IMG/VR virus record: IMGVR_UViG_3300029741_000087
Coordinates: 1-17,491 of that record
DNA from: a virus
Lineage: Duplodnaviria > Heunggongvirae > Uroviricota > Caudoviricetes
Reading direction: 5' to 3' (one strand)
Length of the DNA: 17,491 nucleotides
Below are positions 2,853-17,065 of the stretch, in pieces. Each line of letters opens with the position of its first letter. Position 1 is the first letter of the stretch. Position numbers and translations under genes: made by a program. The notes under the pieces were generated by a model. The model saw nothing but the letters and a program-made list of their open reading frames with translations. It was not told the origin of the DNA and did not search any database.

Positions 2853-2866
2853 GGGGATGGGTCATC

Positions 2867-3241
2867 ATGAAAAAGGATCTGAAAACGCTGGCGCTGGCCA
2901 GACTGTCAGGGTTTCGTCATAAAACGGTGAAGGTGCCGGAATGGGGTAATGTCAGCGTGGTGCTGCGGGAGCCTTCGGCAGAGGCCTGGTATCTGTGGCA
3001 GGACGTGCTCAATGGTGATGGAGAGGATGACGATACTCTGTCGGTGGTGGCGAAAACCCGCCGTAACCTGGAAGCGGATGTGACGCTGTTCTGCGATGTC
3101 CTGTGTGATACGGATCTGCAACGGGTGTTCACTCCGGACGACCGTGAGCAGGTGCTGGCCGTCTATGGTCCGGTACATGCCCGCTTGCTGCGTCAGGCAC
3201 TGGAACTGATCGCTGATGCAGAGTCGGTCAGAAAAAAGTAG
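2867..3241 (+). CDS. Tail assembly chaperone (lambda G analogue)
   Basis: ATG at 2867 preceded by AAGGGGA at 2851-2857. About 124 aa, acidic. Sits between the major tail protein and the tape measure, and ends in a slippery heptamer. The track's 2819 start is an upstream extension. Confidence 0.65.
   Translation: MKKDLKTLALARLSGFRHKTVKVPEWGNVSVVLREPSAEAWYLWQDVLNGDGEDDDTLSVVAKTRRNLEADVTLFCDVLCDTDLQRVFTPDDREQVLAVYGPVHARLLRQALELIADAESVRKK
3232..3238 (+). promoter_or_regulatory. Programmed -1 ribosomal frameshift site (A AAA AAG) at the end of the G-like ORF
   Basis: In the G frame the last codons are AGA AAA AAG TAG, so X XXY YYZ is A AAA AAG (3232-3238). The -1 frame is open from 3232 through the ATG at 3265 to the stop at 3544-3546. 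Confidence 0.6.
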
Positions 3242-3546
3242 CCCGCCCGGAAATTCGCTTTCTGATGCGACTTGCGCTCCGTCTGGGGCGCACCTTATCC
3301 GAACTGCGGCACAGCCTGAGTGCGAGCGAGGCGATGATGTGGATGGAGTTCGACAGGATATCCCCGCTGGGTGATGAGCGCGGGGATATCCGTAATGCAC
3401 AGATCGTGAAAGCGGTTTTCGGGGCACAGGGGATGAATGTTGCACTGAAGGACGCCATGCTCTGCTGGGGCGAGGATGAGGATAAGCCGGAGGTGGATCC
3501 GTTTGCGGCGCTGGAAGACGCGCTGAGCCTTGCAGCACAGTCATGA
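3232..3546 (+). CDS. T-like extension of the tail assembly chaperone, expressed as a G-T fusion by -1 frameshift
   Basis: ORF 3265..3546 lies in the -1 frame relative to G and is open back to the slippery site. This G/GT arrangement upstream of the tape measure is conserved in long-tailed phages (established knowledge). Confidence 0.55.
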   Translation, partial: KKVARPEIRFLMRLALRLGRTLSELRHSLSASEAMMWMEFDRISPLGDERGDIRNAQIVKAVFGAQGMNVALKDAMLCWGEDEDKPEVDPFAALEDALSLAAQS

Positions 3547-3554
3547 ATGATGAG

Positions 3555-3575
3555 AACCGCTGAGGCGGTTTTTTT
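3555..3575 (+). terminator. Weak hairpin plus T-run between GT and the tape measure gene (possible attenuator)
   Basis: aaccgc (3555-3560), loop tgag, gcggtt (3565-3570), with T-run 3569-3575; 19 nt upstream of the H start. Confidence 0.3.
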
Positions 3576-3593
3576 ACGCCAGGAGAAAGGTGA

Positions 3594-6500
3594 ATGGCGA
3601 CGTTACGTGAACTGATTATCAAAATTTCGGCAAATTCACAGTCATTCCAGTCGGAGATCCAGCGGGCGTCCCGTATGGGCAGTGAATATTACCGGACCCT
3701 GCAGAATGGCGGACGTCAGGCTGCTGCGGCAGCCAGGGAGCAGTGCCGGGCTCTGGCTGAGCTGAACAGCCAGTTGACGGAAATCCGCGCTTCGGCTGTC
3801 GGAATGACCAGTGCGTTTGCCGGTGCCTTTGCCACCGGACACCTGATTTCGCTGGCAGATGAATGGAGCTCCGTGAATGCCCGTCTGAAACAGGCGTCGC
3901 AGTCATCGGATGAATTTGCGTTATCACAGAAAGTGCTGATGGACATCAGCCAGCGGACAGGCACCGCATTTTCGGATAATGCGACCCTGTTTGCCCGTTC
4001 GGCTGCCTCGATGCGTGAATATGGTTACAGTGCTGATGATGTGCTGAAGGTGACGGAGGCCATTTCGACAGGGCTGAAAATTTCCGGTGCCAGTGCGGCA
4101 GAGGCGGGTTCGGTGATCACCCAGTTCAGCCAGGCGCTGGCACAGGGGGTGTTGCGCGGCGAGGAATTTAATTCGGTCAATGAAAGTGGGGACCGGATCA
4201 TTCGCGCACTGGCTGCAGGCATGGGCGTGGCCCGTAAGGATCTGAAGGCGATGGCGGACGATGGTCAACTGACGGCGGATAAAGTCGTTCCCGCGTTAAT
4301 CAGCCAGCTGGGGATATTGCGTGATGAATATGCAGCCATGCCGGAAACGGTGTCTGACGGGATCACGAAGGTGGAAAACGCCTTTATGGCCTGGGTGGGC
4401 GGCGCGAATGAGGCCAGCGGAGCGACGAAAACGCTCTCCGGCGCACTGAACGGTGTGGCCGGAAATATTGATACCGTGGCAACAGCTGCGGGTGTGCTGG
4501 TTGCTGTCGGGGTGGCCCGGTACTTTGGTAATCTGGCTTCCGGAGCGATGTCTGCCACGGCAGGACTTGTGACCGCTGCACGTAATGAAGTGGCACTGGC
4601 TGAGGCCCAGTTAAGGGGAACGCAGATTGCCACGGCGCGGGCAAGGGCAGCCGTGTACCGGGCTCAGCAGGCTGTGGCGGCAGCCCGCGGGACTGAGATG
4701 CAGATTGCGGCAGAGGCCCGTCTGGCGGTCACACAGGAACGCCTGAACAGAAATATTGCTGCCAGAACCGCCGCCCAGAATGCGCTGAACAGTACAACGG
4801 CGGTGGGCTCACGTCTGATGAGCGGTGCGCTGGGACTGGTTGGAGGCGTACCCGGACTGGTGATGCTGGGAGCTGCCGCATGGTACACGCTGTACCAGAA
4901 TCAGGAGCAGGCCAGGGAGTCTGCGCGCCAGTATGCACTGACGATTGATGAAATCGCGCATAAAACGCCATCAATGTCTCTGCCTGAAGCCTCAGATAAT
5001 GAAGGGCGAACACGGGAGGCGCTGACAGAGCAGAACCGGCTGATTGATGAGCAGGCCAGCCGGGTGAAATCCCTGCAGGAAAAAATCGCCGGGTATCAGT
5101 ATGTGCTGGCTAATCCGGGCTGGACGACCGGTAACGGCTTCATGATAAACCATCTGACATCGGTGAAAACTGTAACGGAAGAGCTTGCTCAGGCAACAGA
5201 GCAGTTTGCTGTTGAGCAGTCCCGTCTGGCACAGATGCAGGAAAAAGCGCAGTCCATTCAGGATGTGCTTGCCGGACTGGAAGAGCGCCGTGTTGTGTTA
5301 ATTCGTCAGCAGGCAGCAGAGCAGAATAAAGCGTATCAGTCACTGCTGGTCATGAACGGTCAGCATACGGAATTCAACCGCCTGCTGGGGCTGGGTAATG
5401 AACTGCTGCAACAGCGTCAGGGACTGGCGAGTGTACCGCTGCGACTGCCACAGGCCACTCTGGATGATAAACAGCAGAGCGCCCTGAATAACACAGAGCG
5501 TCAACTGGCCCTGTCCCGGCTGAAAGGGGAAGAAAAAGAGCGTGCCCGGCTGGGGTATGCGGCGGATGACCTTGGTCTGGTGGGGGATACGTATCAGGAG
5601 GCGAGGCAGCGTTACATCCGTAATTCGATGGAAGCCTGGCGCAATAATGAGGCGAATAAACCCAAATCCCGGGCCGGAAAATCAGGGGCGGAAAAAGCGG
5701 AAGACAGTTTTTCCCGTCTGCTGAAGCAGCAGAAGGAACAACTGGCACTGGCCGGGAAGAATACAGAACTGGCAAAACTGAAATACCAGACCTCGCAGGG
5801 CGAGCTGAAAACCCTGACGGAGATACAGAAGCAGGAGCTGCTGCGCAATGCTGCCCTGATTGACCAGAAGAAAATCCGGGAGCAGTTACGGGCCCGGGAG
5901 GAGACCCTGAAAAATGATAATGCAGACGCAAGGGCATCAAATGACGCTGAGCTGCTGGGGTACGGGCAGGGTGAGCGGGTCCGTGAACGGATGCGGGAGC
6001 TGCAGCAGATTCGTGACGGCTACCGCCAGAAGGATGCGGACCTGCAGTCTCAGTATCAGACAGGGGATATCAGTGAGGATTTTTACAGACAGGCGCTGGC
6101 GCAGAATGCGCAGTATCTGAGTGAACGCCTTAAAGACCAGGAGGCTTTTTATGCCGAATCGGATGCGCAGCGTGCTGACTGGCAGAAAGGGCTGCAGGAA
6201 GGGCTAAGTAACTGGGTGGACAGCGCATCAGATTACGCTTCACAGGCAGCACAGCTTGCGACAGACGGTATCTCAGGGATGGTGAATAACATCACGGAGA
6301 TGCTGAACGGAAATAAAGTGGAATGGCGCAGCTGGGCTGCATCAATCCTGCAGGAAATATCAAAAGTTCTTATGAATGCGGCCATTGTCAACGGCATTAA
6401 GATGGCGGCAAACAGTATGTCCGGTGCAGGAGGATTTTTCGGCAGTATAGGCAACTGGCTGGGTGGCGCGGTGGCAAATGCAAAAGGCGGCGTTTATACC

Positions 6501-6836
6501 TCGGCAAACCTGAGTGCATACAGTAACAGTATTGTGGACACGCCCACGTACTTTGCCTTTGCAAAAGGGGCAGGGCTGATGGGGGAGGCCGGACCTGAAG
6601 CCATCATGCCCCTGACCCGGGCAGCGGATGGTTCACTCGGCGTGCGTGCGGTGGGCAGTATGAACGGCAGTGCGGGTCTGGTGTATTCCCCGGTGTACCA
6701 CATCGCCATTCAGAATGACGGCGCTAACGGGCAGATAGGGCCGGAAGCGGCGGGCACCCTTGTGCAACTGATTGACCAGCGGGTACAGGCGGTGATGTTA
6801 TCCATGCGTCGTGACGGAGGAATGCTGAGTGGATGA
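3594..6836 (+). CDS. H: Tail tape measure protein
   Basis: 1080 aa, Ala/Gln-rich, predicted coiled-coil-like, with a hydrophobic Gly-rich segment. C-terminus (QNDGANGQIGPEAAG...RRDGGMLSG) resembles the lambda H C-terminus as I recall it (NNDGTNGQIGPAAL...RDGGLFSG). Shine-Dalgarno AGGAGAAAGG upstream. Confidence 0.9.
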   Translation: MATLRELIIKISANSQSFQSEIQRASRMGSEYYRTLQNGGRQAAAAAREQCRALAELNSQLTEIRASAVGMTSAFAGAFATGHLISLADEWSSVNARLKQASQSSDEFALSQKVLMDISQRTGTAFSDNATLFARSAASMREYGYSADDVLKVTEAISTGLKISGASAAEAGSVITQFSQALAQGVLRGEEFNSVNESGDRIIRALAAGMGVARKDLKAMADDGQLTADKVVPALISQLGILRDEYAAMPETVSDGITKVENAFMAWVGGANEASGATKTLSGALNGVAGNIDTVATAAGVLVAVGVARYFGNLASGAMSATAGLVTAARNEVALAEAQLRGTQIATARARAAVYRAQQAVAAARGTEMQIAAEARLAVTQERLNRNIAARTAAQNALNSTTAVGSRLMSGALGLVGGVPGLVMLGAAAWYTLYQNQEQARESARQYALTIDEIAHKTPSMSLPEASDNEGRTREALTEQNRLIDEQASRVKSLQEKIAGYQYVLANPGWTTGNGFMINHLTSVKTVTEELAQATEQFAVEQSRLAQMQEKAQSIQDVLAGLEERRVVLIRQQAAEQNKAYQSLLVMNGQHTEFNRLLGLGNELLQQRQGLASVPLRLPQATLDDKQQSALNNTERQLALSRLKGEEKERARLGYAADDLGLVGDTYQEARQRYIRNSMEAWRNNEANKPKSRAGKSGAEKAEDSFSRLLKQQKEQLALAGKNTELAKLKYQTSQGELKTLTEIQKQELLRNAALIDQKKIREQLRAREETLKNDNADARASNDAELLGYGQGERVRERMRELQQIRDGYRQKDADLQSQYQTGDISEDFYRQALAQNAQYLSERLKDQEAFYAESDAQRADWQKGLQEGLSNWVDSASDYASQAAQLATDGISGMVNNITEMLNGNKVEWRSWAASILQEISKVLMNAAIVNGIKMAANSMSGAGGFFGSIGNWLGGAVANAKGGVYTSANLSAYSNSIVDTPTYFAFAKGAGLMGEAGPEAIMPLTRAADGSLGVRAVGSMNGSAGLVYSPVYHIAIQNDGANGQIGPEAAGTLVQLIDQRVQAVMLSMRRDGGMLSG

Positions 6837-7170
6837 GATTAAGACTCTTCACTGGTGTCCCCGGGAAGGGATGCAGGTGACGGAGAAACCGTCGGTGATG
6901 ACGGTGAAGTTTGGCGACGGTTATCAGCAGCGTCGTCCGGCAGGACTGAATGCGCAACTGAAGACCTTTCAGGTGGTTTTTCGGGTGACAACGGATGCTG
7001 AGCGGGAGGCACTGTCCGCGTTTCTGTCATGGCATGGTGGTTACCGGGCTTTTTTGTGGAAGCCCCCGAAACATAACCGGACGGTCAGGGTGGTGTGCCG
7101 GGAGTGGAGTATTACGGATAACGCCCGGTACAGTGATTTCAGTTGCACGATAGAGCAGGTAGTTAGATGA
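6829..7170 (+). CDS. M: Minor tail protein M
   Basis: 113 aa; KFGDGYQQRRPAGLNAQLKTF...HGGYRAFLWKPP...EQVV aligns closely with lambda M (RFGDGYSQRAPAGLNANLKTY...HGGWKSFLWTPP...EQVV) from memory. GTG start overlaps the H stop. Confidence 0.9.
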   Translation: MDEIKTLHWCPREGMQVTEKPSVMTVKFGDGYQQRRPAGLNAQLKTFQVVFRVTTDAEREALSAFLSWHGGYRAFLWKPPKHNRTVRVVCREWSITDNARYSDFSCTIEQVVR

Positions 7171-7368: not shown

Positions 7369-8523
7369 ATGAAAAAAATGACAGTGGCACTTTCTGCTGT
7401 AGCAGTGGCAGTGATGTTTGCTGCGGGGGCGCAGGCAGCAGAAGTTTATAATAAAGATGGTAATAAACTGGATCTTTACGGGCGTGCAACCGCTCTGCAT
7501 TACTTCTCGGATGATAAAGGTAATGACGGAGACCAGACTTATGCTCGTCTCGGCTTTAAAGGCGAAACGCAGATTAATGATCAACTGACCGGATTTGGTC
7601 AGTGGGAATACCAGTTCTCTGGTAATAAAACGGAATCTGAAGGTTCCGCGGGAAATAAAACCCGTCTGGCATTTGCAGGTCTGAGATTTGCAGATGTTGG
7701 TACCATTGATTACGGACGTAACTATGGTATTGCTTACGATGTCGGATCATATACTGACGTACTGCCTGAGTTTGGTGGTGATGGCTGGACGCAGACCGAT
7801 AACTTTATGACGGCCCGAACTTCCGGTGTCCTGACTTACCGTAATACAGACTTCTTCGGACTGGTTGATGGTCTGAATTTTGCGGCGCAGTATCAGGGCA
7901 AAAATGAGCGTGATGACCTTCAGAAGGCTAATGGCGACGGGTATGGTTTCTCGGCCAGCTATGAGTTTGATGGTTTTGGTTTTGTCGCTGCGTATACCAA
8001 GTCAGATCGTACTGATAAGCAGGTTCAGGGGTTGAATGGTACTGCAGATGTTCTTGATCCTGCATCAGGTAAAAAGGTTGGAGAAAAAGCAGTTGACTCA
8101 GGTAGTGTGGCAAAAGGTAAACATGCTGAATTCTGGGGAACTGGTCTTAAATATGATGCCAATAACCTGTATCTGGCAGCAGTGTATTCTGAAACCCAGA
8201 ATATGACGACCTTTGGTGATCAAGGTGTTGCGGATAAAGCTCAGAATATCGAAGCCGTTGTTCAGTATCAGTTTGATTTTGGTCTGCGCCCGTCCCTTGC
8301 CTACCTTCAGTCCCGCGGACAGGATGTTATGGTTGGTGGTGTGAACCATGGCGATCAGGATCTGGTTAAATATATTGATGTCGGTGCGACTTATTACTTT
8401 AACAAGAATATGTCCACCTATGTTGATTATAAAATTAACCTGATTGATGAAAGTGAATTTACCCGGAAAGCCGGTGTTGCGACAGATAATATCGTTGCTG
8501 TGGGTATGACTTATCAGTTCTGA
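7369..8523 (+). CDS. General outer-membrane porin, OmpC/OmpF/PhoE family (phage moron)
   Basis: 384 aa. Cleavable signal peptide [23 protein letters not shown] followed by [15 protein letters not shown]; C-terminal ...VAVGMTYQF with terminal Phe, typical of beta-barrel porins. AAGGA Shine-Dalgarno before the ATG. The gene and its flanks are markedly AT-richer than neighbouring tail genes. Confidence 0.9.
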
Positions 8524-8601: not shown

Positions 8602-8695
8602 GTCACTGCGATCAGCAATTGCCATCTGGCATGTGCTGATTTAACTTTCTGTTATTACCTTTATTGGTTTTATTTTAAATTGGACTTTTATTGTT

Positions 8696-8720
8696 CGGGG
8701 CGCGTCTGCGCCCCTTTTTT
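8696..8720 (+). terminator. Intrinsic terminator closing the porin moron, abutting the L start
   Basis: ggggcgc (8697-8703), loop gtct, gcgcccc (8708-8714), then tttttt at 8715-8720. Confidence 0.7.
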
Positions 8721-8732
8721 ATGGGCGGATAT

Positions 8733-9431
8733 ATGCAGGATATTCACGAAGAAAGCCTGAACGAGTCGGTTAAGTCAGAGCAGTCACCGCGGGTGGTGCT
8801 CTGGGAAATCGACCTGACGGTGCAGGGCGGTGAGCGGTATTTTTTCTGCAATGAGCTGAATGAAAAAGGGGAGCCGGTGACCTGGCAGGGGCGTGAATAT
8901 CAGGCGTACCCGATTGAGGGCAGCGGCTTTGAGATGAACGGAAAGGGCAGCAGTGCCCGCCCGTCGCTGACGGTGTCCAATCTTTTCGGCCTTGTCACCG
9001 GGATGGCGGAGGATTTGCAGAGCCTGGTGGGTGCCACGGTGGTCCGCCGCCGGGTGTATGCGCGTTTTCTTGATGCGGTGAACTTTGTGGCGGGGAATCC
9101 GGAGGCAGACCCGGAGCAGGAGCTGACGGACCGGTGGGTGGTGGAGCAGTTATCAGCGCTGACGGCCATGACGGCCTCGTTTGTGCTGGCGACACCGACG
9201 GAGACGGACGGGGCGCTGTTTCCCGGTCGCATCATGCTGGCGAACACCTGTATGTGGGATTACCGGGGCGATGAGTGCGGGTATAACGGTCCGGCAGTGG
9301 CGGATGAGTTCGACAACCCTACCACGGATATCCGGAAGGACAGATGCAGTAAATGCATGCGCGGGTGTGAGATGCGCGGCATGGCGGTCAATTTTGGCGG
9401 TTTCCTTTCCATCAATAAACTTTCGCAGTAA
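8733..9431 (+). CDS. L: Minor tail protein L
   Basis: Starting at ATG 8733 the protein MQDIHEESLNE...VVLWEIDL...GERYFFCNE...GEPVTWQGREYQ...FGGFLSINKLSQ is near-colinear with lambda L as I recall it (MQDIRQETLNE...FGGFLSINKLSQ). The track's 8691 start is an upstream extension through the terminator. Confidence 0.9.
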   Translation: MQDIHEESLNESVKSEQSPRVVLWEIDLTVQGGERYFFCNELNEKGEPVTWQGREYQAYPIEGSGFEMNGKGSSARPSLTVSNLFGLVTGMAEDLQSLVGATVVRRRVYARFLDAVNFVAGNPEADPEQELTDRWVVEQLSALTAMTASFVLATPTETDGALFPGRIMLANTCMWDYRGDECGYNGPAVADEFDNPTTDIRKDRCSKCMRGCEMRGMAVNFGGFLSINKLSQ

Positions 9432-10763: not shown

Positions 10764-10866
10764 AAATAAAAAAATCCCGCAGAGTTAGCGGAGCTGCGGG
10801 AAGAGATACGAAGATTAACTGTAAGGAGTTATTATTATGTCACAGCAAAAAAAACGGTAACGCAGA
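10764..10866 (-). ncRNA. Candidate small RNA, cassette 1 (predicted from promoter and terminator; not a known family by sequence)
   Basis: Minus strand: TTCACA (10897-10892), 16-bp spacer, TATAAT (10875-10870), predicted start near 10864 at conserved GCGUUACC. Intrinsic terminator: hairpin 10800-10776 then U7 (10774-10768). No plausible ORF. Contains AACUCCUUACA. Confidence 0.5.
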
Positions 10867-10896
10867 GAAATTATAAGCGCCACTGGGATTTTGTGA

Positions 10897-10918
10897 AAAT
10901 GTGAAGAATTTCAGAAAT
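10897..10918. promoter_or_regulatory. CRP-like box (TGTGA-N6-TCAGA), cassette 1
   Basis: AAATGTGAagaattTCAGAaat; left half matches the CRP consensus AAATGTGA exactly, right half is TCAGA versus TCACA. Centre is about 43 bp upstream of the predicted minus-strand start. Confidence 0.45.
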
Positions 10919-10996
10919 TTTTTGCTGCAGAGGTGCAGGGAGCTTGCCGGGTATCTGTGGCAGAAGACAGAAAACATCATGCCGGGGTTAAGGGAT

Positions 10997-11096
10997 AAAA
11001 AAATCCCGCAGAGTCCGGAGACTGCGGGACAGAACCGATGAAGATTAACGTTCAAGGAGTTTTGTTTTTATTGACCCGAAAAAACTGTAACGCCCC
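10997..11096 (-). ncRNA. Candidate small RNA, cassette 2
   Basis: Minus strand: -10-like TATCAT (11105-11100), start near 11094 at conserved GCGUUACAG, terminator hairpin 11028-11005 then U7 (11003-10997). Contains AACUCCUUGAA. The -35 is poor. Confidence 0.4.
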
Positions 11097-11126
11097 GGAA
11101 TGATATCTGCCACGGGAACGTACAGA

Positions 11127-11148
11127 AAATGTGAAGAAATTCAGACTT
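11127..11148. promoter_or_regulatory. CRP-like box, cassette 2
   Basis: AAATGTGAagaaatTCAGActt; same spacing to the -10 hexamer and conserved GCGTTAC as in cassette 1. Confidence 0.4.
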
Positions 11149-11230
11149 TTTCTGTCGCAGGTTTACAGAACGGATGACCGCCAGGGTACCAGTGGCGTAA
11201 ATGAGCAGGATGTTGTGGTGTGGCTGAAGC

Positions 11231-11336
11231 AAAAAAATCTCCCGTAATATCGCCGGATACTGACGGGAGACGAATAGTCACCTTAAGGAGGTCTGATAAT
11301 TATTGCTTTTATTGAGCAAAAAAACTGTAACGCTGC
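11231..11336 (-). ncRNA. Candidate small RNA, cassette 3
   Basis: Minus strand: TATAAT (11345-11340), start near 11334 at conserved GCGUUACAG, terminator with perfect 8-bp stem (11271-11264 / 11245-11238) then U7 (11237-11231). Contains GACCUCCUUAAGG. Confidence 0.5.
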
Positions 11337-11366
11337 GTCATTATAGTGGCTACAGGCAATTGCCGG

Positions 11367-11388
11367 AAATGTGAAGAATTTCAGAAAT
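11367..11388. promoter_or_regulatory. CRP-like box, cassette 3
   Basis: AAATGTGAagaattTCAGAaat; same spacing to the TATAAT at 11345-11340 as in cassette 1. Confidence 0.45.
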
Positions 11389-11404
11389 TTTATTCCGTCA
11401 TGAC

Positions 11405-11436
11405 ACAGGCACCCTCCGGGGTGCCTGTCGTTTTCT
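11405..11436 (+). terminator. Plus-strand intrinsic terminator about 40 nt upstream of the J start
   Basis: Perfect 10-bp stem acaggcaccc (11405-11414) / gggtgcctgt (11419-11428), loop tccg, followed by cgttttct. Confidence 0.5.
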
Positions 11437-11478
11437 GGCATAAACAGATTCAGACATCAGACAGGAGAGGGGGACAGA

Positions 11479-14400
11479 GTGGGTAAAGGGGGCGGCAAGG
11501 GGCACACACCGCGTGAGGCGAAGGACAATCTCAAATCCACGCAGATGATGAGCGTGATTGATGCCATTGGTGAGGGACCGGTGGAAGGTCCGGTGAAGGG
11601 ACTGCAGAGTATTCTGGTGAACAAAACCCCGCTGACGGACACGGACGGTAATCCCGTGATACACGGTGTGACCGCCGTCTGGCGTGCCGGGGAGCAGGAG
11701 CAGACACCGCCGGAAGGCTTTGAGTCCTCCGGGGCAGAAACCGCACTGGGCGTGGAGGTGACGAAGGCAAAGCCGGTGACGCGCACCATCACGTCAGCGA
11801 ACATTGACCGTCTGCGGGTCACCTTCGGGGTACAGTCACTGGTGGAGACCACCTCAAAGGGTGACCGTAATCCCTCTTCTGTCCGCCTGCTGATTCAGCT
11901 TGAGCGTAACGGGCACTGGGTGACGGAGAAGGATGTCACCATTAACGGCAAGACCACCTCGCAGTACCTGACGTCGGTGATTCTGAATAATCTCCCTGAG
12001 CGCCCCTTTAACATCCGGATGGTCAGGGTGACGGCGGACAGCACCACGGACCAGCTGCAGAACAGAACGCTGTGGTCGTCATACACCGAAATCATCGATG
12101 TGAAACAGTGCTACCCGAACACGGCGATTGTGGGGCTGCAGGTGGATGCGGAGCAGTTTGGTGGCCAGCAGCTGACGGTGAACTACCATATCCGTGGTCG
12201 CATCATTCAGGTGCCGTCAAACTATGACCCGGAAAAACGCACCTACAGCGGTATCTGGGACGGGAGTCTGAAACCGGCATACAGCAATAACCCGGCCTGG
12301 TGCCTGTGGGACATGCTGACCCACCCGCGCTACGGCATGGGAAAACGCCTGGGGGCCCCGGACGTGGACAAGTGGGCACTGTATGCCATCGGGCAGTACT
12401 GTGACCAGACGGTCCCGGATGGTTTCGGGGGAACAGAGCCGCGGATGACTTTCAATGCGTACCTGTCACAGCAGCGTAAGGTGTGGGATGTCCTGGGGGA
12501 TTTCTGCTCGGCGATGCGCTGTATGCCGGTATGGAACGGCCAGACGCTGACGTTCGTTCAGGACCGTCCGTCGGATGTGGTGTGGCCGTACACCAACAGC
12601 GATGTGGTGGTGGATGATAACGGCGTGGGGTTCCGCTACAGCTTCAGTGCCCTGAAGGACCGGCACACGGCGGTGGAGGTGAATTACACCGACCCGCAGA
12701 ACGGCTGGCAGACCTCCACGGAACTGGTGGAAGACCCGGACGCCATCCTGCGCTACGGGCGCAATCTGCTGAAGATGGATGCGTTCGGCTGTACCAGCCG
12801 CGGTCAGGCCCACCGTGCCGGACTGTGGGTGATAAAGACAGAACTGCTGGAAACGCAGACGGTGGATTTCACGCTCGGGTCACAGGGGCTGCGGCACACG
12901 CCCGGTGACATCATTGAAATCTGTGATAACGACTACGCCGGGACCCTGACCGGTGGACGCATCCTGTCCATCGATGCCGCCAGCCGTACCCTGACGCTGG
13001 ACCGTGAGGTGATACTGCCGGAAGCAGGGACATCGACGGTGAACCTGATTAACGGCAGCGGTAAGCCGGTGCGCGTGGACATCACTGCACACCCCGCCCC
13101 TGACCGGATACAGGTCAGCGTCCTGCCTGATGGCGTGGAGACATACGGTGTGTGGGGACTCTCCCTGCCGTCACTGCGTCGTCGCCTGTTCCGCTGTGTT
13201 TCCATCCGGGAAAACACGGACGGCACCTTTGCCATCACGGCAGTGCAGCACGTACCGGAAAAAGAAGCCATCGTGGATAACGGGGCCACCTTTGAGCCGC
13301 TGTCCGGTTCACTGAACAGCGTCATCCCGCCGGCAGTGCAGCACCTCACGGTGGAGGTGAGTGCCTCAGACGGCCAGTATCTGGCGCTGGCGAAATGGGA
13401 CACGCCGCGGGTGGTGAAGGGCGTGCGCTTCAGTCTGCGCCTGACCAGTGGCAGTGGTGAAAACAGCCGCCTGGTGACCAGCGCTATCACTGCCGACACG
13501 GAGCACCGTTTCAGTGGCCTGCCGCCCGGGGAATACACCCTGACGGTCAGGGCGATAAACAGCTACGGCCAGCAGGGCGAACCTGCCACCACCACGTTCC
13601 GGATTAACGCACCGGCAGCACCGGCCAGCATTGAACTGACGCCGGGGTATTATCAGATAACGGCGGTCCCGCATCTTACGGTGTATGACCCGACGGTACA
13701 ATTTGAGTTCTGGTTTTCGGAGGCAAAAATCGCAGACACATCTCAGGTGGAAACCTCTGCCCGTTATCTGGGGACAGGCAGCCAGTGGAGTGTCTCCGGC
13801 CCGCACATTAAGCCGGGGAAGGATTTCTGGTTTTATGTGCGCAGCGTCAACCTGGTGGGGAAATCTGCGTTTGTGGAAGCCAGTGGCCGGGCCAGCAATG
13901 ATGCGGAAGGGTATCTGGGGCTGTTTCGGGAAAAGATAGGAAAACTGCATCTGGCACAGGGGATGTGGGAGCTGATTGATAACAGCCAGCTTGATGATGA
14001 GATGGCGGAGATGAAGACCACCATCACAGAAACCCGCAATGAAATCACGCAGACGGTCAGTAAAACCCTGGAAGACCAGAGCGCCACCATACAGCAGATA
14101 CAGCGGGTGCAGACAGACACAAATAACGACCTGGCTGCGCTGTACATGCTGAAGGTGCAGAAAACAAAAAACGGCATTCCGTATGTTGCCGGTATTGGTG
14201 CGGGGATTGAGGATGCTGATGGCCAGCCCCTGAGCAATATACTGCTGCAGGCGGACCGTATCGCGATGATTAACCCGGAGAACGGCAACACCACGCCGCT
14301 GTTTGTGGCGCAGGGGAATCAGCTGTTCATGAACGATGTGTTCCTGAAGCGACTGTTTGCGGTGAGCATCACCTCGTCCGGCAATCCCCCGACGTTCTCC

Positions 14401-14946
14401 CTGACGCCGGAGGGCAGGCTGACGGCCCGCAATGCGGACATCAGCGGACATATCAGTGCGAACTCGGGCACGCTGAATAATGTCGTGATAGCGGAGAACT
14501 GTACGATAAATGGCACGCTGAAAGCGGAGAACATTATTGGTGATCTTGTGAAATGTGCAGGGGTGGCTTTTCCGGTGGATGGTAGTTACCTTGCGAACGG
14601 TACACGAACGCTGACGGTGTATGACGATCACAGCTTTGACCGGCAGATTATAATCCCGCCGATAATCTATGTCGGGTCAAAACAGGAATCCCGCACCAGT
14701 AATGACATCTGGACAGAGTGCTTCCTGCATGTTGATCAGAACGGACGCCGGATTTATTCAGGCAGGTCAGTGACAGAGCCGGGAATTTTCAGCGGGATCA
14801 TCGATATGCCAGCCGGTCATGGTCATATCACCCTGAGTTTTACCGTAAGTTCACGACGTCAGAACGGGAGTTTTGGCAGTTCACGTATCAGTAACCTTCA
14901 GGCGATAGTGGTGAAGAAAAACAGCGCGGGGATCAGTATCCGCTGA
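11479..14946 (+). CDS. J: Host specificity / central tail fibre protein J
   Basis: 1155 aa from a GTG start. N-terminus [22 protein letters not shown] and long internal stretches (for example [35 protein letters not shown]) are near-identical to lambda J as I recall it. The C-terminal ~150 aa are more divergent. Confidence 0.95.
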
Positions 14947-15144
14947 ACATCGCGCCCCGGGATTGCCGGAAGGAGACAAAAACCGTACAGTATGCGCGGG
15001 TGCCTTTGGCTGATGGCCGGAGGGAACACCTGAAGGCCGGATGTGAAAAGGCCCCGGACAAACATTCATGTTTAACCCGAGGCCTGACCATTCATCCTAA
15101 GCAAGTGAAAGGTTAGCGCCTCTCCGTAAAAGGAGCAAGCGTTT

Positions 15145-15285
15145 ATGTCGCAAAAACCGTTAAAAACCACCGTGATTTGTATCACGGTAGTGCTCATTAT
15201 CTGGATCACCCACACTTCACTGTGCGAGTTCCGGTTCCGGATAGCGGGCGCGGAGATTGCGGCGTTCTTACAGTGTAAGCAGTAA
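15145..15285 (+). CDS. Hok/Gef-family type I toxin (small membrane peptide); not in the ORF track because it is shorter than 60 aa
   Basis: 46 aa: MSQKPLKTTVICITVVLIIWITHTSLCEFRFRIAGAEIAAFLQCKQ. One transmembrane stretch followed by SLCEFRFR...EIAAF, matching the Hok signature (Hok of plasmid R1: ...[23 protein letters not shown]) from memory. AGGAG at 15131-15135, 9 nt before the ATG. Confidence 0.7.
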   Translation: MSQKPLKTTVICITVVLIIWITHTSLCEFRFRIAGAEIAAFLQCKQ

Positions 15286-15293
15286 GAAACCGT

Positions 15294-15316
15294 GGCGGGG
15301 GAGAATATCCCCCGCC
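15294..15316 (+). other. Perfect 8-bp GC stem-loop immediately after the hok-like stop
   Basis: ggcggggg (15294-15301) / cccccgcc (15309-15316) with a 7-nt loop and no U-tract; could be an mRNA 3' structural element. Confidence 0.4.
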
Positions 15317-15380
15317 GACCGGTTGCTGAGGGTGGTCAGCCGGATGGCACCGTTTTAACACCAACAAACCACAAATATTA

Positions 15381-15416
15381 CCGCAGGCCGGGAAACCGGT
15401 CCTGCGGTTTTTTTAT
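15381..15416 (+). terminator. Intrinsic terminator between the hok-like gene and stf
   Basis: ccgcaggccgg / ccggtcctgcgg stem with one mismatch, GAAA tetraloop, then T-run 15408-15416. Confidence 0.7.
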
Positions 15417-15427
15417 GGGGGAAATCC

Positions 15428-17065
15428 ATGACAGTCAGAATATCGGGTGTGCTGAAGGATGGTACGGGAAAAGCGGTACCGGGATGCACGATAGAGCTGA
15501 AAGCGCGCCGCACAACGGAGACGGTGATTGTCACCACGGTGGCGTATGGTCAGCCGGGGGAAACCGGCAGTTACAGTATGGATGTTGAGCCGGGGTTGTA
15601 CCGGGTGACGCTGAACACGGAAGGGTACGCGCCGTCATATGTGGGTGACATTCTGGTGAAGGCGGATTCTGCACCGGGAACGCTGAATAAATATCTGATG
15701 GACCTGGAAGACGCACAGTATTACCCGAAAGCCCTTGCAGAGCTGGAAGCGGTGGCAGCGGAAATCCTGAAACGTGCGGAAGCGTCAGCGGCGAGTGCGG
15801 AGGAGGCAAAAAAACGGGCAGAGAATGCGCGGGGACCGAAGGGGGATAAGGGGGACACCGGGCCGCAGGGTATTCCCGGGCCAAAAGGCGATACCGGCGA
15901 GCGGGGGCCAAAGGGTGAGCGTGGTGAGACAGGACCACAGGGGCTTCAGGGTGTGAAAGGTGAACGGGGAGAGAAGGGCGAAAAAGGCGAGCCGGGAGGA
16001 CCGGATGCGACGACGGCACAGAAGGGAATTGTGCAGTTAAGCAGCGCAACGGACAGTGATGATGAAACGAAGGCAGCCACCCCGAAAGCGGTGAAAGCGG
16101 CAATGGACAAAGCGGACGGATGCCTGGAGAAAGCGAAAAACGGTGACGATATCCCGGATAAGGTGAAGTTTCTGAACACCGTGGGAGCAGCCAGAGTATA
16201 CGGGCGGGACATTCATACGGAGACCGGTGAATGGACCACGAGTGAGTTTGTGGCCTGGCTGAAAGAAAAGGGGGCATTTGACCAGCCTTACTGGATGATG
16301 AAGGCATCACTGCCTGCGGCAATGAATAAAGTCATCACAGATGTCGGACCGGGAAAACTCAATCTGGGTGGCTGTGTCATTGAGGTGATGGGAACGTATG
16401 AGGCTGCCATAGTCCGGGTCACCATTGGCGAATACGGTGCAACGGGGTTTATTAATGGCACGGTCTGTACCTGTACGGTTTACGGCGACACACGGTATTT
16501 CCACTGGCGGGTGGATTACAGCACAAAAAACAAACCGGATACGGTCAGCCAGCGGGATGCCAGCACGACGCAGAAAGGTGTGGTGCAGTTAAGCAGTGAT
16601 ACTGGCAGTAATGACGAAACAAAGGCAGCCACGCCGAAGGCCGTGAAGGCGGCAATGGATGTGGCAAATGAAGCGAAAACAAAGGCAGAAGAGGCTGCAG
16701 CAGGAGGTGGTGTTCCCGGTCCGAAAGGGGAGAAAGGCGACCCCGGTCCCAGAGGTGAGCGTGGAGAAACCGGGCCGATGGGGCCGCCCGGGGCATCAGA
16801 CGGGAAGAGCCGGGTTGTGGGTATCAGGCTGGGTAATAAACAGACTTATGCGCCGCAAACAGACAGCACTACATGGGCAGTGGATTTGGATATTGGTGCG
16901 ATGATTACGGGGATTGGCGGTTACAACGACGGAAACAAAACCCTTATTGACAGGGTATCTTACAGGCCGCTTCAGGTGACATTTGATGGTTCTCAGTGGC
17001 GTACAGTCAGCGTGGGTGAGTATGTGTCGTCAGGAGCTTCGGGGTTTGAGTATTTTCCATTATAA
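15428..17065 (+). CDS. stf: Side tail fibre protein (Stf-like) with collagen-like Gly-X-Y tracts
   Basis: 545 aa. N-terminus MTVRISGVLKDGTGKAVPGCTIELKARR matches lambda Stf (MAVKISGVLKDGTGKPVQNCTIQLKARR) from memory. Two copies of the fibre repeat QKG(I/V)VQLSS...ETKAATPKAVKAAMD. Gly-X-Y runs at aa 136-191 and 427-455. Confidence 0.9.
   Translation: MTVRISGVLKDGTGKAVPGCTIELKARRTTETVIVTTVAYGQPGETGSYSMDVEPGLYRVTLNTEGYAPSYVGDILVKADSAPGTLNKYLMDLEDAQYYPKALAELEAVAAEILKRAEASAASAEEAKKRAENARGPKGDKGDTGPQGIPGPKGDTGERGPKGERGETGPQGLQGVKGERGEKGEKGEPGGPDATTAQKGIVQLSSATDSDDETKAATPKAVKAAMDKADGCLEKAKNGDDIPDKVKFLNTVGAARVYGRDIHTETGEWTTSEFVAWLKEKGAFDQPYWMMKASLPAAMNKVITDVGPGKLNLGGCVIEVMGTYEAAIVRVTIGEYGATGFINGTVCTCTVYGDTRYFHWRVDYSTKNKPDTVSQRDASTTQKGVVQLSSDTGSNDETKAATPKAVKAAMDVANEAKTKAEEAAAGGGVPGPKGEKGDPGPRGERGETGPMGPPGASDGKSRVVGIRLGNKQTYAPQTDSTTWAVDLDIGAMITGIGGYNDGNKTLIDRVSYRPLQVTFDGSQWRTVSVGEYVSSGASGFEYFPL

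Follow-up and report, generated by a model that had tools for sequence, protein, structure and literature searches.

A Hok/Gef toxin gene between J and stf

The window, that is, the entire stretch of 17,491 nt (IMGVR_UViG_3300029741_000087) to which all coordinates refer, contains an interval bounded upstream by the gene of the tip attachment protein J (11479–14946, plus strand, stop codon 14944–14946), recognized by six J-specific Pfam domains, and downstream by the tail-fibre ORF stf (15428–17065), in which a prophage tail-fibre N-terminal domain is accompanied by fibre and collagen repeats. Morons classically occupy the J–stf slot, where lambda carries lom. Here the slot hosts a plus-strand ORF (15145–15285) of 46 codons, from ATG to a TAA stop codon, with a Shine-Dalgarno sequence AAGGAG (15130–15135) located 9 nt 5′ of the ATG. 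The initial annotation had described a 46-codon ORF with a good Shine-Dalgarno, placed between J and stf, and both the ORF and its placement are recovered here, the latter through the Pfam domains of the two neighbours.

The 46-residue product, MSQKPLKTTVICITVVLIIWITHTSLCEFRFRIAGAEIAAFLQCKQ, belongs to the Hok/Gef toxin family, as had been proposed. The Pfam profile HOK_GEF (PF01848) matches residues 10–44 with 42.2 bits (E 6.1e-11), and since the cut-off is 22 bits and the E value about 6e-11, the match of the Hok signature is not due to chance. The same assignment follows from PHROG 251 (E 4e-21) and from a BLASTP alignment with R1 Hok (39% identity over the conserved core). The conserved positions of the family, defined by a logo of 1264 peptides (bioRxiv 10.1101/2025.08.07.668861), are C16, T18, L30, C31, E32 and E41 in R1 numbering; they align with C12, T14, L26, C27, E28 and E37 of the window peptide, which thus displays both the N-terminal hydrophobic helix and the Cys/Thr/Leu-Cys-Glu/Glu positions that characterize Hok proteins. 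Scores against two narrower NCBIfam models lie under their cut-offs (37.9 bits versus 89 for the HokA equivalog NF007290; 37.1 bits versus 73 for the Hok subfamily NF007279), and the peptide is a generic Hok/Gef member, neither HokA nor another named K-12 type. The PGAP label of the gene is likewise the generic 'Hok/Gef family protein' only.

The ORF is under purifying selection: over 24 distinct homologous coding sequences the median dN/dS is 0.27, and in the C-terminal half it drops to 0.19. The exact peptide is UniRef A0A152KU77, "Hok/Gef family protein [Escherichia coli]", found on at least 1000 public contigs, and RefSeq WP_000078852.1 is a one-residue variant encoded in an equivalent J–hok–tail-fibre order. 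The description of the gene as unannotated holds for the ORF track of the initial annotation only, the gene being annotated in RefSeq and UniRef. Of 5426 complete E. coli genomes, about 270 contain the entire 481-nt region, and one STEC genome can have as many as seven matching copies; in phage 1720a-02, the region is 98.5% identical and labelled hypothetical.

This Hok type corresponds to cluster 79 of a 2025–26 Hok catalogue, in which the peptide 79_1563, identical to the window peptide at 44 of 46 residues, was cloned (bioRxiv 10.1101/2025.08.07.668861). The only members of the 45 catalogue constructs reported as non-toxic are 19_179, 60_1482 and 69_1540, so that 79_1563 is not among them, a preprint result obtained with a two-residue variant and an artificial Shine-Dalgarno (bioRxiv 10.1101/2025.08.07.668861). 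By analogy, the exact window peptide would be toxic as well. The same work finds hok genes about four-fold enriched in prophages (bioRxiv 10.1101/2025.08.07.668861). The cassette is therefore already known, being named in RefSeq and UniRef, included in PHROG 251 and placed in a catalogue cluster with a toxicity-assayed representative. The latest survey of Hok diversity states that Mok, Sok and mRNA structure across homologues were outside its analysis.

RNA elements and the Sok antisense gene

To describe the RNA elements, 85 related loci were collected from IMG/VR and GTDB genomes, and 47 distinct hok mRNAs were aligned. The scan of genome contigs yielded six loci only; the assemblies of three carry the names of non-enterobacterial taxa, probably owing to contamination.

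A putative hok promoter (14963–14991, plus strand) begins 17 nt past the J stop codon and combines a −35 element TTGCCG (14963–14968), a 17-nt spacer and a −10 element TACAGT (14986–14991), with a predicted +1 near 14998. All relatives show a TAnAnT hexamer at an equal distance from GGGTGCC. A generic sigma-70 scan of 14850–15500 called neither this promoter nor that of Sok, and the assignment of both therefore rests on homology and conservation; the hok promoter was missed because it fits only 8 of 12 consensus positions.

From this start, the alignment and folds predict that the hok mRNA runs for about 355 nt (14998 to about 15355) and folds back on itself, its 5′ end (tac) being paired with the 3′ end (fbi). 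Homology to the hok mRNAs of R1, hokC and hokB extends over the 360-nt transcript region as a whole, and alignment with these known loci and with the 933W copy reveals the conserved mRNA pairing elements that had been anticipated. Rfam model RF01794 (sok / hok leader) matches the leader at 14998–15156 on the sense strand over its full length (1–157; E 3.7e-11), with 55 bits against a gathering threshold of 59. The tac element (14998–15013, plus strand; GGGUGCCUUUGGCUGA), of the form GGGUGCC..GGCUGA, coincides with the start of this match and pairs with the fbi (fold-back inhibition) element (15336–15351, plus strand), of the form UCAGCC..GGCACC. In the minimum-energy fold of 14998–15357, the 5′ end is closed on the 3′ end, with 14999–15018 paired to 15334–15351. 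Across the 47 aligned sequences, the distal tac/fbi helix consists of 6 invariant bp that are 100% paired, and the proximal helix shows three compensatory pairs and is 96.6% paired. Pairing of the closed form holds in 89% of alignment cells over the 47 distinct loci, compared with 34–51% when the 3′ partners are slid.

Between the ORF and fbi lies a GC-rich hairpin (15294–15316, plus strand), GGCGGGGGA-GAAUA-UCCCCCGCC. It is the 'perfect 8-bp GC stem-loop' of the initial annotation, whose 8 G–C pairs are present, together with one further A–U pair. Compensatory changes affect five of the nine pairs, and 99.5% of cells remain paired. The hairpin aligns with the R1 hairpin GGCGGGC/GCCCGCC, and by homology would form the stable 3′ terminus of the hok mRNA once this is processed into its active form; in R1, mutations in the 3′ stem abolish toxicity by exposing the RNA to exonuclease (PMC9841398). 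The strong terminator noted previously, of the intrinsic type, is also found, just before stf (15381–15414, plus strand; CCGCAGGCCGG-GAAA-CCGGUCCUGCGG followed by T7). It lies outside the conserved hok module, because homology between cassette types stops a few bases past fbi, just after 15351: comparison across these types shows it to be kept only in window-type loci, other types having unrelated terminators and 933W-type loci none.

An antisense gene within the 200-nt leader, where Sok had been expected, is indicated by homology. The annotations of K-12 sokC and sokB both project to the minus strand, with the 5′ end at 15102 and the 3′ end at 15041, and predict a Sok RNA of about 62–66 nt (about 15103 to 15041). 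This RNA would comprise a variable free 5′ recognition tail, a long GC-rich terminator hairpin and a U-rich tail; its predicted fold (−28.3 kcal/mol, z −4.3) has a shape like those of R1 Sok and SokC. The predicted Sok promoter (15110–15138, minus strand) consists of a −35 element TTGCTC (15138 to 15133), a 17-nt spacer and a −10 element TAACCT (15115 to 15110), a layout that matches R1 (TTGCGC, 17 nt, TATCCT). Its −35 element overlaps the hok Shine-Dalgarno, and its −10 element, read on the sense strand as AGGTTA or, in few loci, as AGGATA, is kept in 47 of 47 aligned loci. These features describe a Sok gene convergent with hok, lying inside its leader and endowed with a conserved promoter that would drive its expression.

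The segment complementary to Sok can adopt two predicted structures. Alignment with R1, hokC and hokB and the folds place a ucb-like box, AAAAGGCCCC, in a 'closed' hairpin (15046–15085, plus strand) that sequesters GAGG (15079–15082), which corresponds to the mok Shine-Dalgarno of R1; on the opposite strand, the hairpin sequence provides the terminator stem of Sok. Folding with the open form enforced makes tac pair with the ucb-like box. The Rfam consensus structure then defines the Sok-target (sokT) hairpin of the open form (15079–15122, plus strand), in which an outer stem pairs GAGGC with GCCUC (dcb) and an apical stem pairs ACCAUUCAU with GUGAAAGGU. The loop, CCUAAGCAA, holds CUAA, an instance of the YUNR motif required by the U-turn loop literature. 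Five of the nine apical pairs show compensatory changes.

The target stem is also the most variable part of the locus. Among 20 window-type loci with hok coding sequences at least 95% identical, pairwise diversity reaches 0.30 at 15088–15102, against about 0–0.05 across most of the locus; it amounts to 0.17 at 15043–15057 and to about 0.12 at 15103–15117, the 3′ arm of the stem, and in the loop of the GC hairpin. The window-type loci comprise five stem haplotypes, each of which preserves pairing, and the 85 fetched loci contain 25 variants. Tandem copies within one contig all differ from each other (three in L045, two in L047), and co-resident copies in one genome mostly, not always, differ in the target stem. 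The two variable segments are mutually complementary, and each of the two commonest stem haplotypes occurs with a particular form of the second segment (in 9 of 10 and 5 of 5 loci). This pattern fits selection on the specificity of the Sok–hok interaction; recombination between paralogues would be an alternative source of the variation. Considered together, the conserved elements and their covariation indicate that the cassette is an intact module under selection and not debris.

Translation of hok and the absence of mok

The mok frame, which the initial annotation had also expected in the leader, is absent. No ORF starting with ATG, GTG or TTG leads from the mRNA start to the hok Shine-Dalgarno in the window, and no such frame is conserved among 29 relatives; the identical scan recovers a through-reading mok frame in R1, hokC and hokB. 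At the alignment column of the mok ATG of these three loci, which falls in the 5′ arm of the Sok-target stem, the window has CATTCATCC and 933W has ACTTCGTACC. Several candidate frames were rejected for want of conservation or of a credible ribosome-binding site. GTG15000–TAG15116 (38 codons) begins at +3 of the mRNA with no Shine-Dalgarno and ends 29 nt short of the hok ATG; indels interrupt it in close relatives and in 933W. TGA directly follows ATG15041, and GTG15043 and ATG15068 each open 10 codons that end far upstream. GTG15105–TAG15116 (3 codons) is missing from 933W-type and other variants, and the near-cognate ATT15090 is not conserved.

R1 makes Hok only if mok is translated at least as far as the hok Shine-Dalgarno (PMC9841398). 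Since the window has no mok frame, Hok must be translated from its own Shine-Dalgarno, which is itself masked. The sequestering hairpin (15115–15143, plus strand) pairs the anti-Shine-Dalgarno CUCC with GGAG, and AGCGC with GCGUU. Its local fold has a free energy of −12.8 kcal/mol, with a probability of 0.00 that the Shine-Dalgarno is unpaired, versus 0.3–0.5 in R1, hokC and hokB; pairing is kept in 83–89% of cells, with no compensatory changes. The hok Shine-Dalgarno is accordingly predicted to be at least as masked as that of R1, and such full sequestration, if the folds are correct, counts against translation of Hok from the native RNA.

Apart from mok, the cassette closely follows R1 hok/sok (parB), hokC/mokC/sokC and hokB/mokB/sokB of K-12. 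The toxin family is the same (39% identity with the R1 Hok core), and so is the order of elements: promoter, tac, ucb, GAGG, Sok-target hairpin, dcb, masked Shine-Dalgarno, hok, GC hairpin and fbi. The convergent Sok gene is equally placed, with its −35 element over the hok Shine-Dalgarno. In contrast to these three loci, the window has neither a mok start codon nor a mok frame. Its leader is shorter, being devoid of the 18-nt insertion of R1 and of the small hairpin before the Shine-Dalgarno, and its Hok has 46 residues with a shorter N terminus, compared with 50–52 residues in R1, hokC and hokB. The genomic setting differs as well, since the window cassette lies in a prophage tail operon, whereas the three known loci are on a plasmid or the core chromosome.

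By analogy with the R1 paradigm (PMC9841398, PMC4147584), the full-length hok RNA would be stable and inert as long as tac is paired with fbi. Slow 3′ trimming to the GC hairpin would free tac, allowing it to pair with the ucb box and thereby exposing the Sok-target hairpin. While the prophage is transcribed, the unstable Sok RNA would pair with this target and the duplex would be destroyed or silenced; should the supply of Sok end, through prophage loss, shut-off of host transcription by an infecting phage or prophage induction, Hok would be made, enter the inner membrane and kill or permeabilize the cell. For the step that R1 entrusts to mok, the preferred candidate is a refolding switch, in which GAGGC:GCCUC pairing in the open form would strip the anti-Shine-Dalgarno strand (GCGCCUCUCC) from the Shine-Dalgarno hairpin. 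Sok, by sequestering GAGGC, would free this strand and let the hairpin re-form. In the folds, the enforced open form lies 0.6 kcal/mol above the minimum, and the tac/ucb pairing arises spontaneously. Constrained folding gives ensemble accessibilities of the Shine-Dalgarno of 0.38 for the unbound RNA, 0.48 with the open form enforced and 0.33 with Sok bound. The switch is thus permitted by the folds, which are compatible with it rather than a demonstration of it, and the computation argues for it weakly because accessibility barely differs between the unbound (0.38) and Sok-bound (0.33) states.

Sok could control a mok-less RNA by displacing GAGGC from the dcb strand, by blocking a standby site or solely by way of cleavage by RNase III. 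A precedent is offered by tisB/istR-1, an SOS-induced type I toxin system of E. coli, in which the toxin Shine-Dalgarno is masked by structure and the antitoxin binds at a distant upstream site, with no leader peptide involved (PMC4147584). Its toxin and RNA are unrelated to those described here, and the analogy for mok-less hok control is mechanistic only.

The 46-residue prophage Hok clade with the 'MSQK' start (clusters 72 and 79 of the catalogue) might, although this is less likely than not, form a mok-independent hok/sok subclass in which Sok exerts control uncoupled from a leader peptide. In this reading, the apical target stem would act as a fast-evolving specificity cassette, preventing cross-silencing among co-resident or tandem prophage copies. 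Literature searches, with older subscription literature outside their range, returned no description of mok-less hok loci. What goes beyond the databases is the clade-wide absence of mok and the hypervariable Sok-target stem, both of them observations at the level of sequence.

Possible roles and related prophage loci

The reading that we favour, with a probability of about 0.8, is that an intact hok/sok cassette of toxin and antisense RNA, ordinary apart from the absent mok, occupies the J–stf gap of this lambdoid E. coli prophage. Such a cassette would in all likelihood be a moron, that is, an independently transcribed insert in the tail operon. The opposite view is that of a translationally silent relic of hok/sok descent, in which loss of mok has left an RNA unable to yield Hok, kept by hitch-hiking in the tail region. 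That no leader ORF reaches the hok Shine-Dalgarno, unlike in R1, hokC and hokB under the identical scan, that this Shine-Dalgarno is locked in the −12.8 kcal/mol hairpin, and that mutations of the mok start codon abolish R1 toxicity (PMC9841398) would all agree with such a relic. Silencing is nevertheless difficult to reconcile with an ORF that is intact and has a dN/dS of 0.27 across diverged copies, with the retention of all RNA elements, compensatory changes included, and with the toxicity reported for near-identical peptides. The absence of mok extends over the clade (29 representatives) and is no private lesion, and a target stem that varies (25 variants) yet stays paired is not easily accounted for unless Sok and hok still interact. 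A relic therefore seems very unlikely.

An intact cassette could serve in prophage addiction, abort infections by superinfecting phages or assist lysis on induction, and these candidate roles are not mutually exclusive. A function in lysis or phage release supposes that, on induction, late read-through from J overrides the convergent Sok promoter, and that Hok then permeabilizes the membrane and advances lysis. Such an induction route, as reported for the hokW-sokW locus of Sp5, is made plausible by the layout: the cassette is read in the same direction as the late tail operon, J and hok have no terminator between them, and late transcription would run head-on into the Sok promoter. In Sp5, sokW RNA is lost on induction, HokW precedes endolysin and deletion halves phage release (PMC8621323); this is, however, a hok locus of a different clade, encoding a 51-residue HokW that starts with MKQQKAM. 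Moreover, the possession of its own promoter and of a full fold-back apparatus fits delayed activation after transcriptional shut-off, although the two roles do not exclude each other, and help with lysis is on balance an unlikely principal role. A comparably low probability attaches to an abortive-infection or exclusion module guarding lysogens, in which a superinfecting lytic phage, by shutting off host transcription, would exhaust Sok and thereby release Hok. As summarized elsewhere, R1 hok/sok on a high-copy plasmid lowers T4 plating and plaque size (PMC8621323), and the roughly four-fold enrichment of hok in prophages (bioRxiv 10.1101/2025.08.07.668861) points in the same direction. The location is suggestive too, the J–stf interval being the classical moron slot in which lambda carries lom. 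Against this, no PADLOC defence model matches the cassette, and the catalogue reports no enrichment of hok near defence systems (bioRxiv 10.1101/2025.08.07.668861).

The interest of the favoured reading, that of an intact cassette, lies in a whole prophage clade in which all RNA elements of the R1 paradigm are retained and only the reading frame on which toxin translation depends in R1 is missing, and in which the antisense recognition stem turns over rapidly with its structure preserved. If true, experiments could address directly how translation and silencing of a hok toxin proceed in the absence of mok and what prevents cross-talk among up to seven copies in one STEC genome; the stability of prophages and the lysis of Shiga-toxigenic E. 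coli would also be concerned.

Among prophage hok/sok loci, functional data are available only for hokW-sokW of Sakai prophage 5 (PMC8621323): toxicity, antagonism by Sok, partial dependence on RNase III and Hfq and an aid to phage release have been described (Takada et al. 2021, PMC8621323). It represents another locus and another clade than the 46-residue type found beside lom or between J and stf, and its results are therefore not simply transferable to the window cassette. The hokW-sokW paper (PMC8621323) was considered as a description of the 933W-type relative and rejected, as its primers YO-357/YO-560 delimit the different, 51-residue Hok with the MKQQKAM start. Repeats between I and J were considered as Pas, AgvB or AsxR sRNAs and likewise rejected: Pas genes sit in the Q/lysis region, and the repeats have no Rfam match.

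The closest relatives compared are the 46-residue Hok copies of 933W, Sp5 and other Stx phages (cluster 72; PHROG 251 'MokW-like host killing'), whose cassette DNA is 78% and whose peptide is 65% identical to those of the window. The 933W-type copy shares the MSQK N terminus, the AAFLQCKQ C terminus, the RNA elements, the absence of mok and the moron slot in the tail region. It is found just downstream of lom in these short-tailed Stx phages, whereas the window cassette is located in place of lom, between J and stf. It further differs by having no downstream terminator and other Sok-target sequences, and it is unannotated in the 933W record. In some records, the 933W-type copy carries the label "MokW-like host killing".

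Complementary hypervariable segments in the hok leader

The leader of the hok mRNA contains two hypervariable segments, at window positions 15043-15049 and 15088-15102, the latter lying within the hairpin predicted to be the target of the antisense Sok RNA. The two segments are mutually complementary, reading GGAUG and CAUCC in the window, and GAAAG and CUUUC in the related locus L020. Among the 20 loci whose hok coding sequence is at least 95% identical to that of the window type, each of the two commonest stem haplotypes co-occurs with a particular form of its partner segment (9/10 and 5/5 loci, respectively). Taken together, this complementarity and the association of haplotypes with one partner form suggest, at the level of sequence, that the two segments make up a co-evolving helix of the closed form, the full-length fold in which the mRNA ends are paired.

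Related cassettes and their annotation

On some viral contigs, two or three hok/sok cassettes are arranged in direct tandem (L045, 1862-3211; L047, ~2854-3700), and the Sok-target stem differs in every copy. The lom-side hok of phage 933W (L007 1537-1895, corresponding to AF125520 45511-45869) carries an ORF that lacks annotation in the reference record, AF125520. The label 'MokW-like', given to the Hok ORF in other records and in PHROG 251, is a misnomer. The Rfam family RF01794 is named 'sok', and its match lies on the sense strand of the hok leader. Among the genome contigs, the enterobacterial prophage hok described here also occurs in three assemblies that bear the names Planococcaceae, Vagococcus and Xanthomonas pisi (L008, L009 and L011), likely because these assemblies are contaminated.

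A porin gene and the I–J intergenic repeats

Between M (6829-7170) and L (8691-9431), both of them tail genes, a plus-strand gene at 7369-8523 encodes a 384-residue porin of the Gram-negative type (Pfam Porin_1, 480 bits) and is a second cargo gene of the prophage tail operon. The I–J intergenic region (10764-11478) harbours three diverged direct repeats of ~230-240 nt each, in which no ORF and no Rfam match was found. All three share the box GAAAATGTGAAGAATTTCAGAAATTTT, and each opens with a sequence complementary to an intrinsic terminator of the minus strand (CCCGCAG..CTGCGGG followed by T7). The repeats are candidates for tandem sRNA genes on the minus strand. Their genomic setting differs from the one reported for the Pas sRNAs. 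The repeat region is present in 785 E. coli genomes, and RefSeq gives no annotation there.
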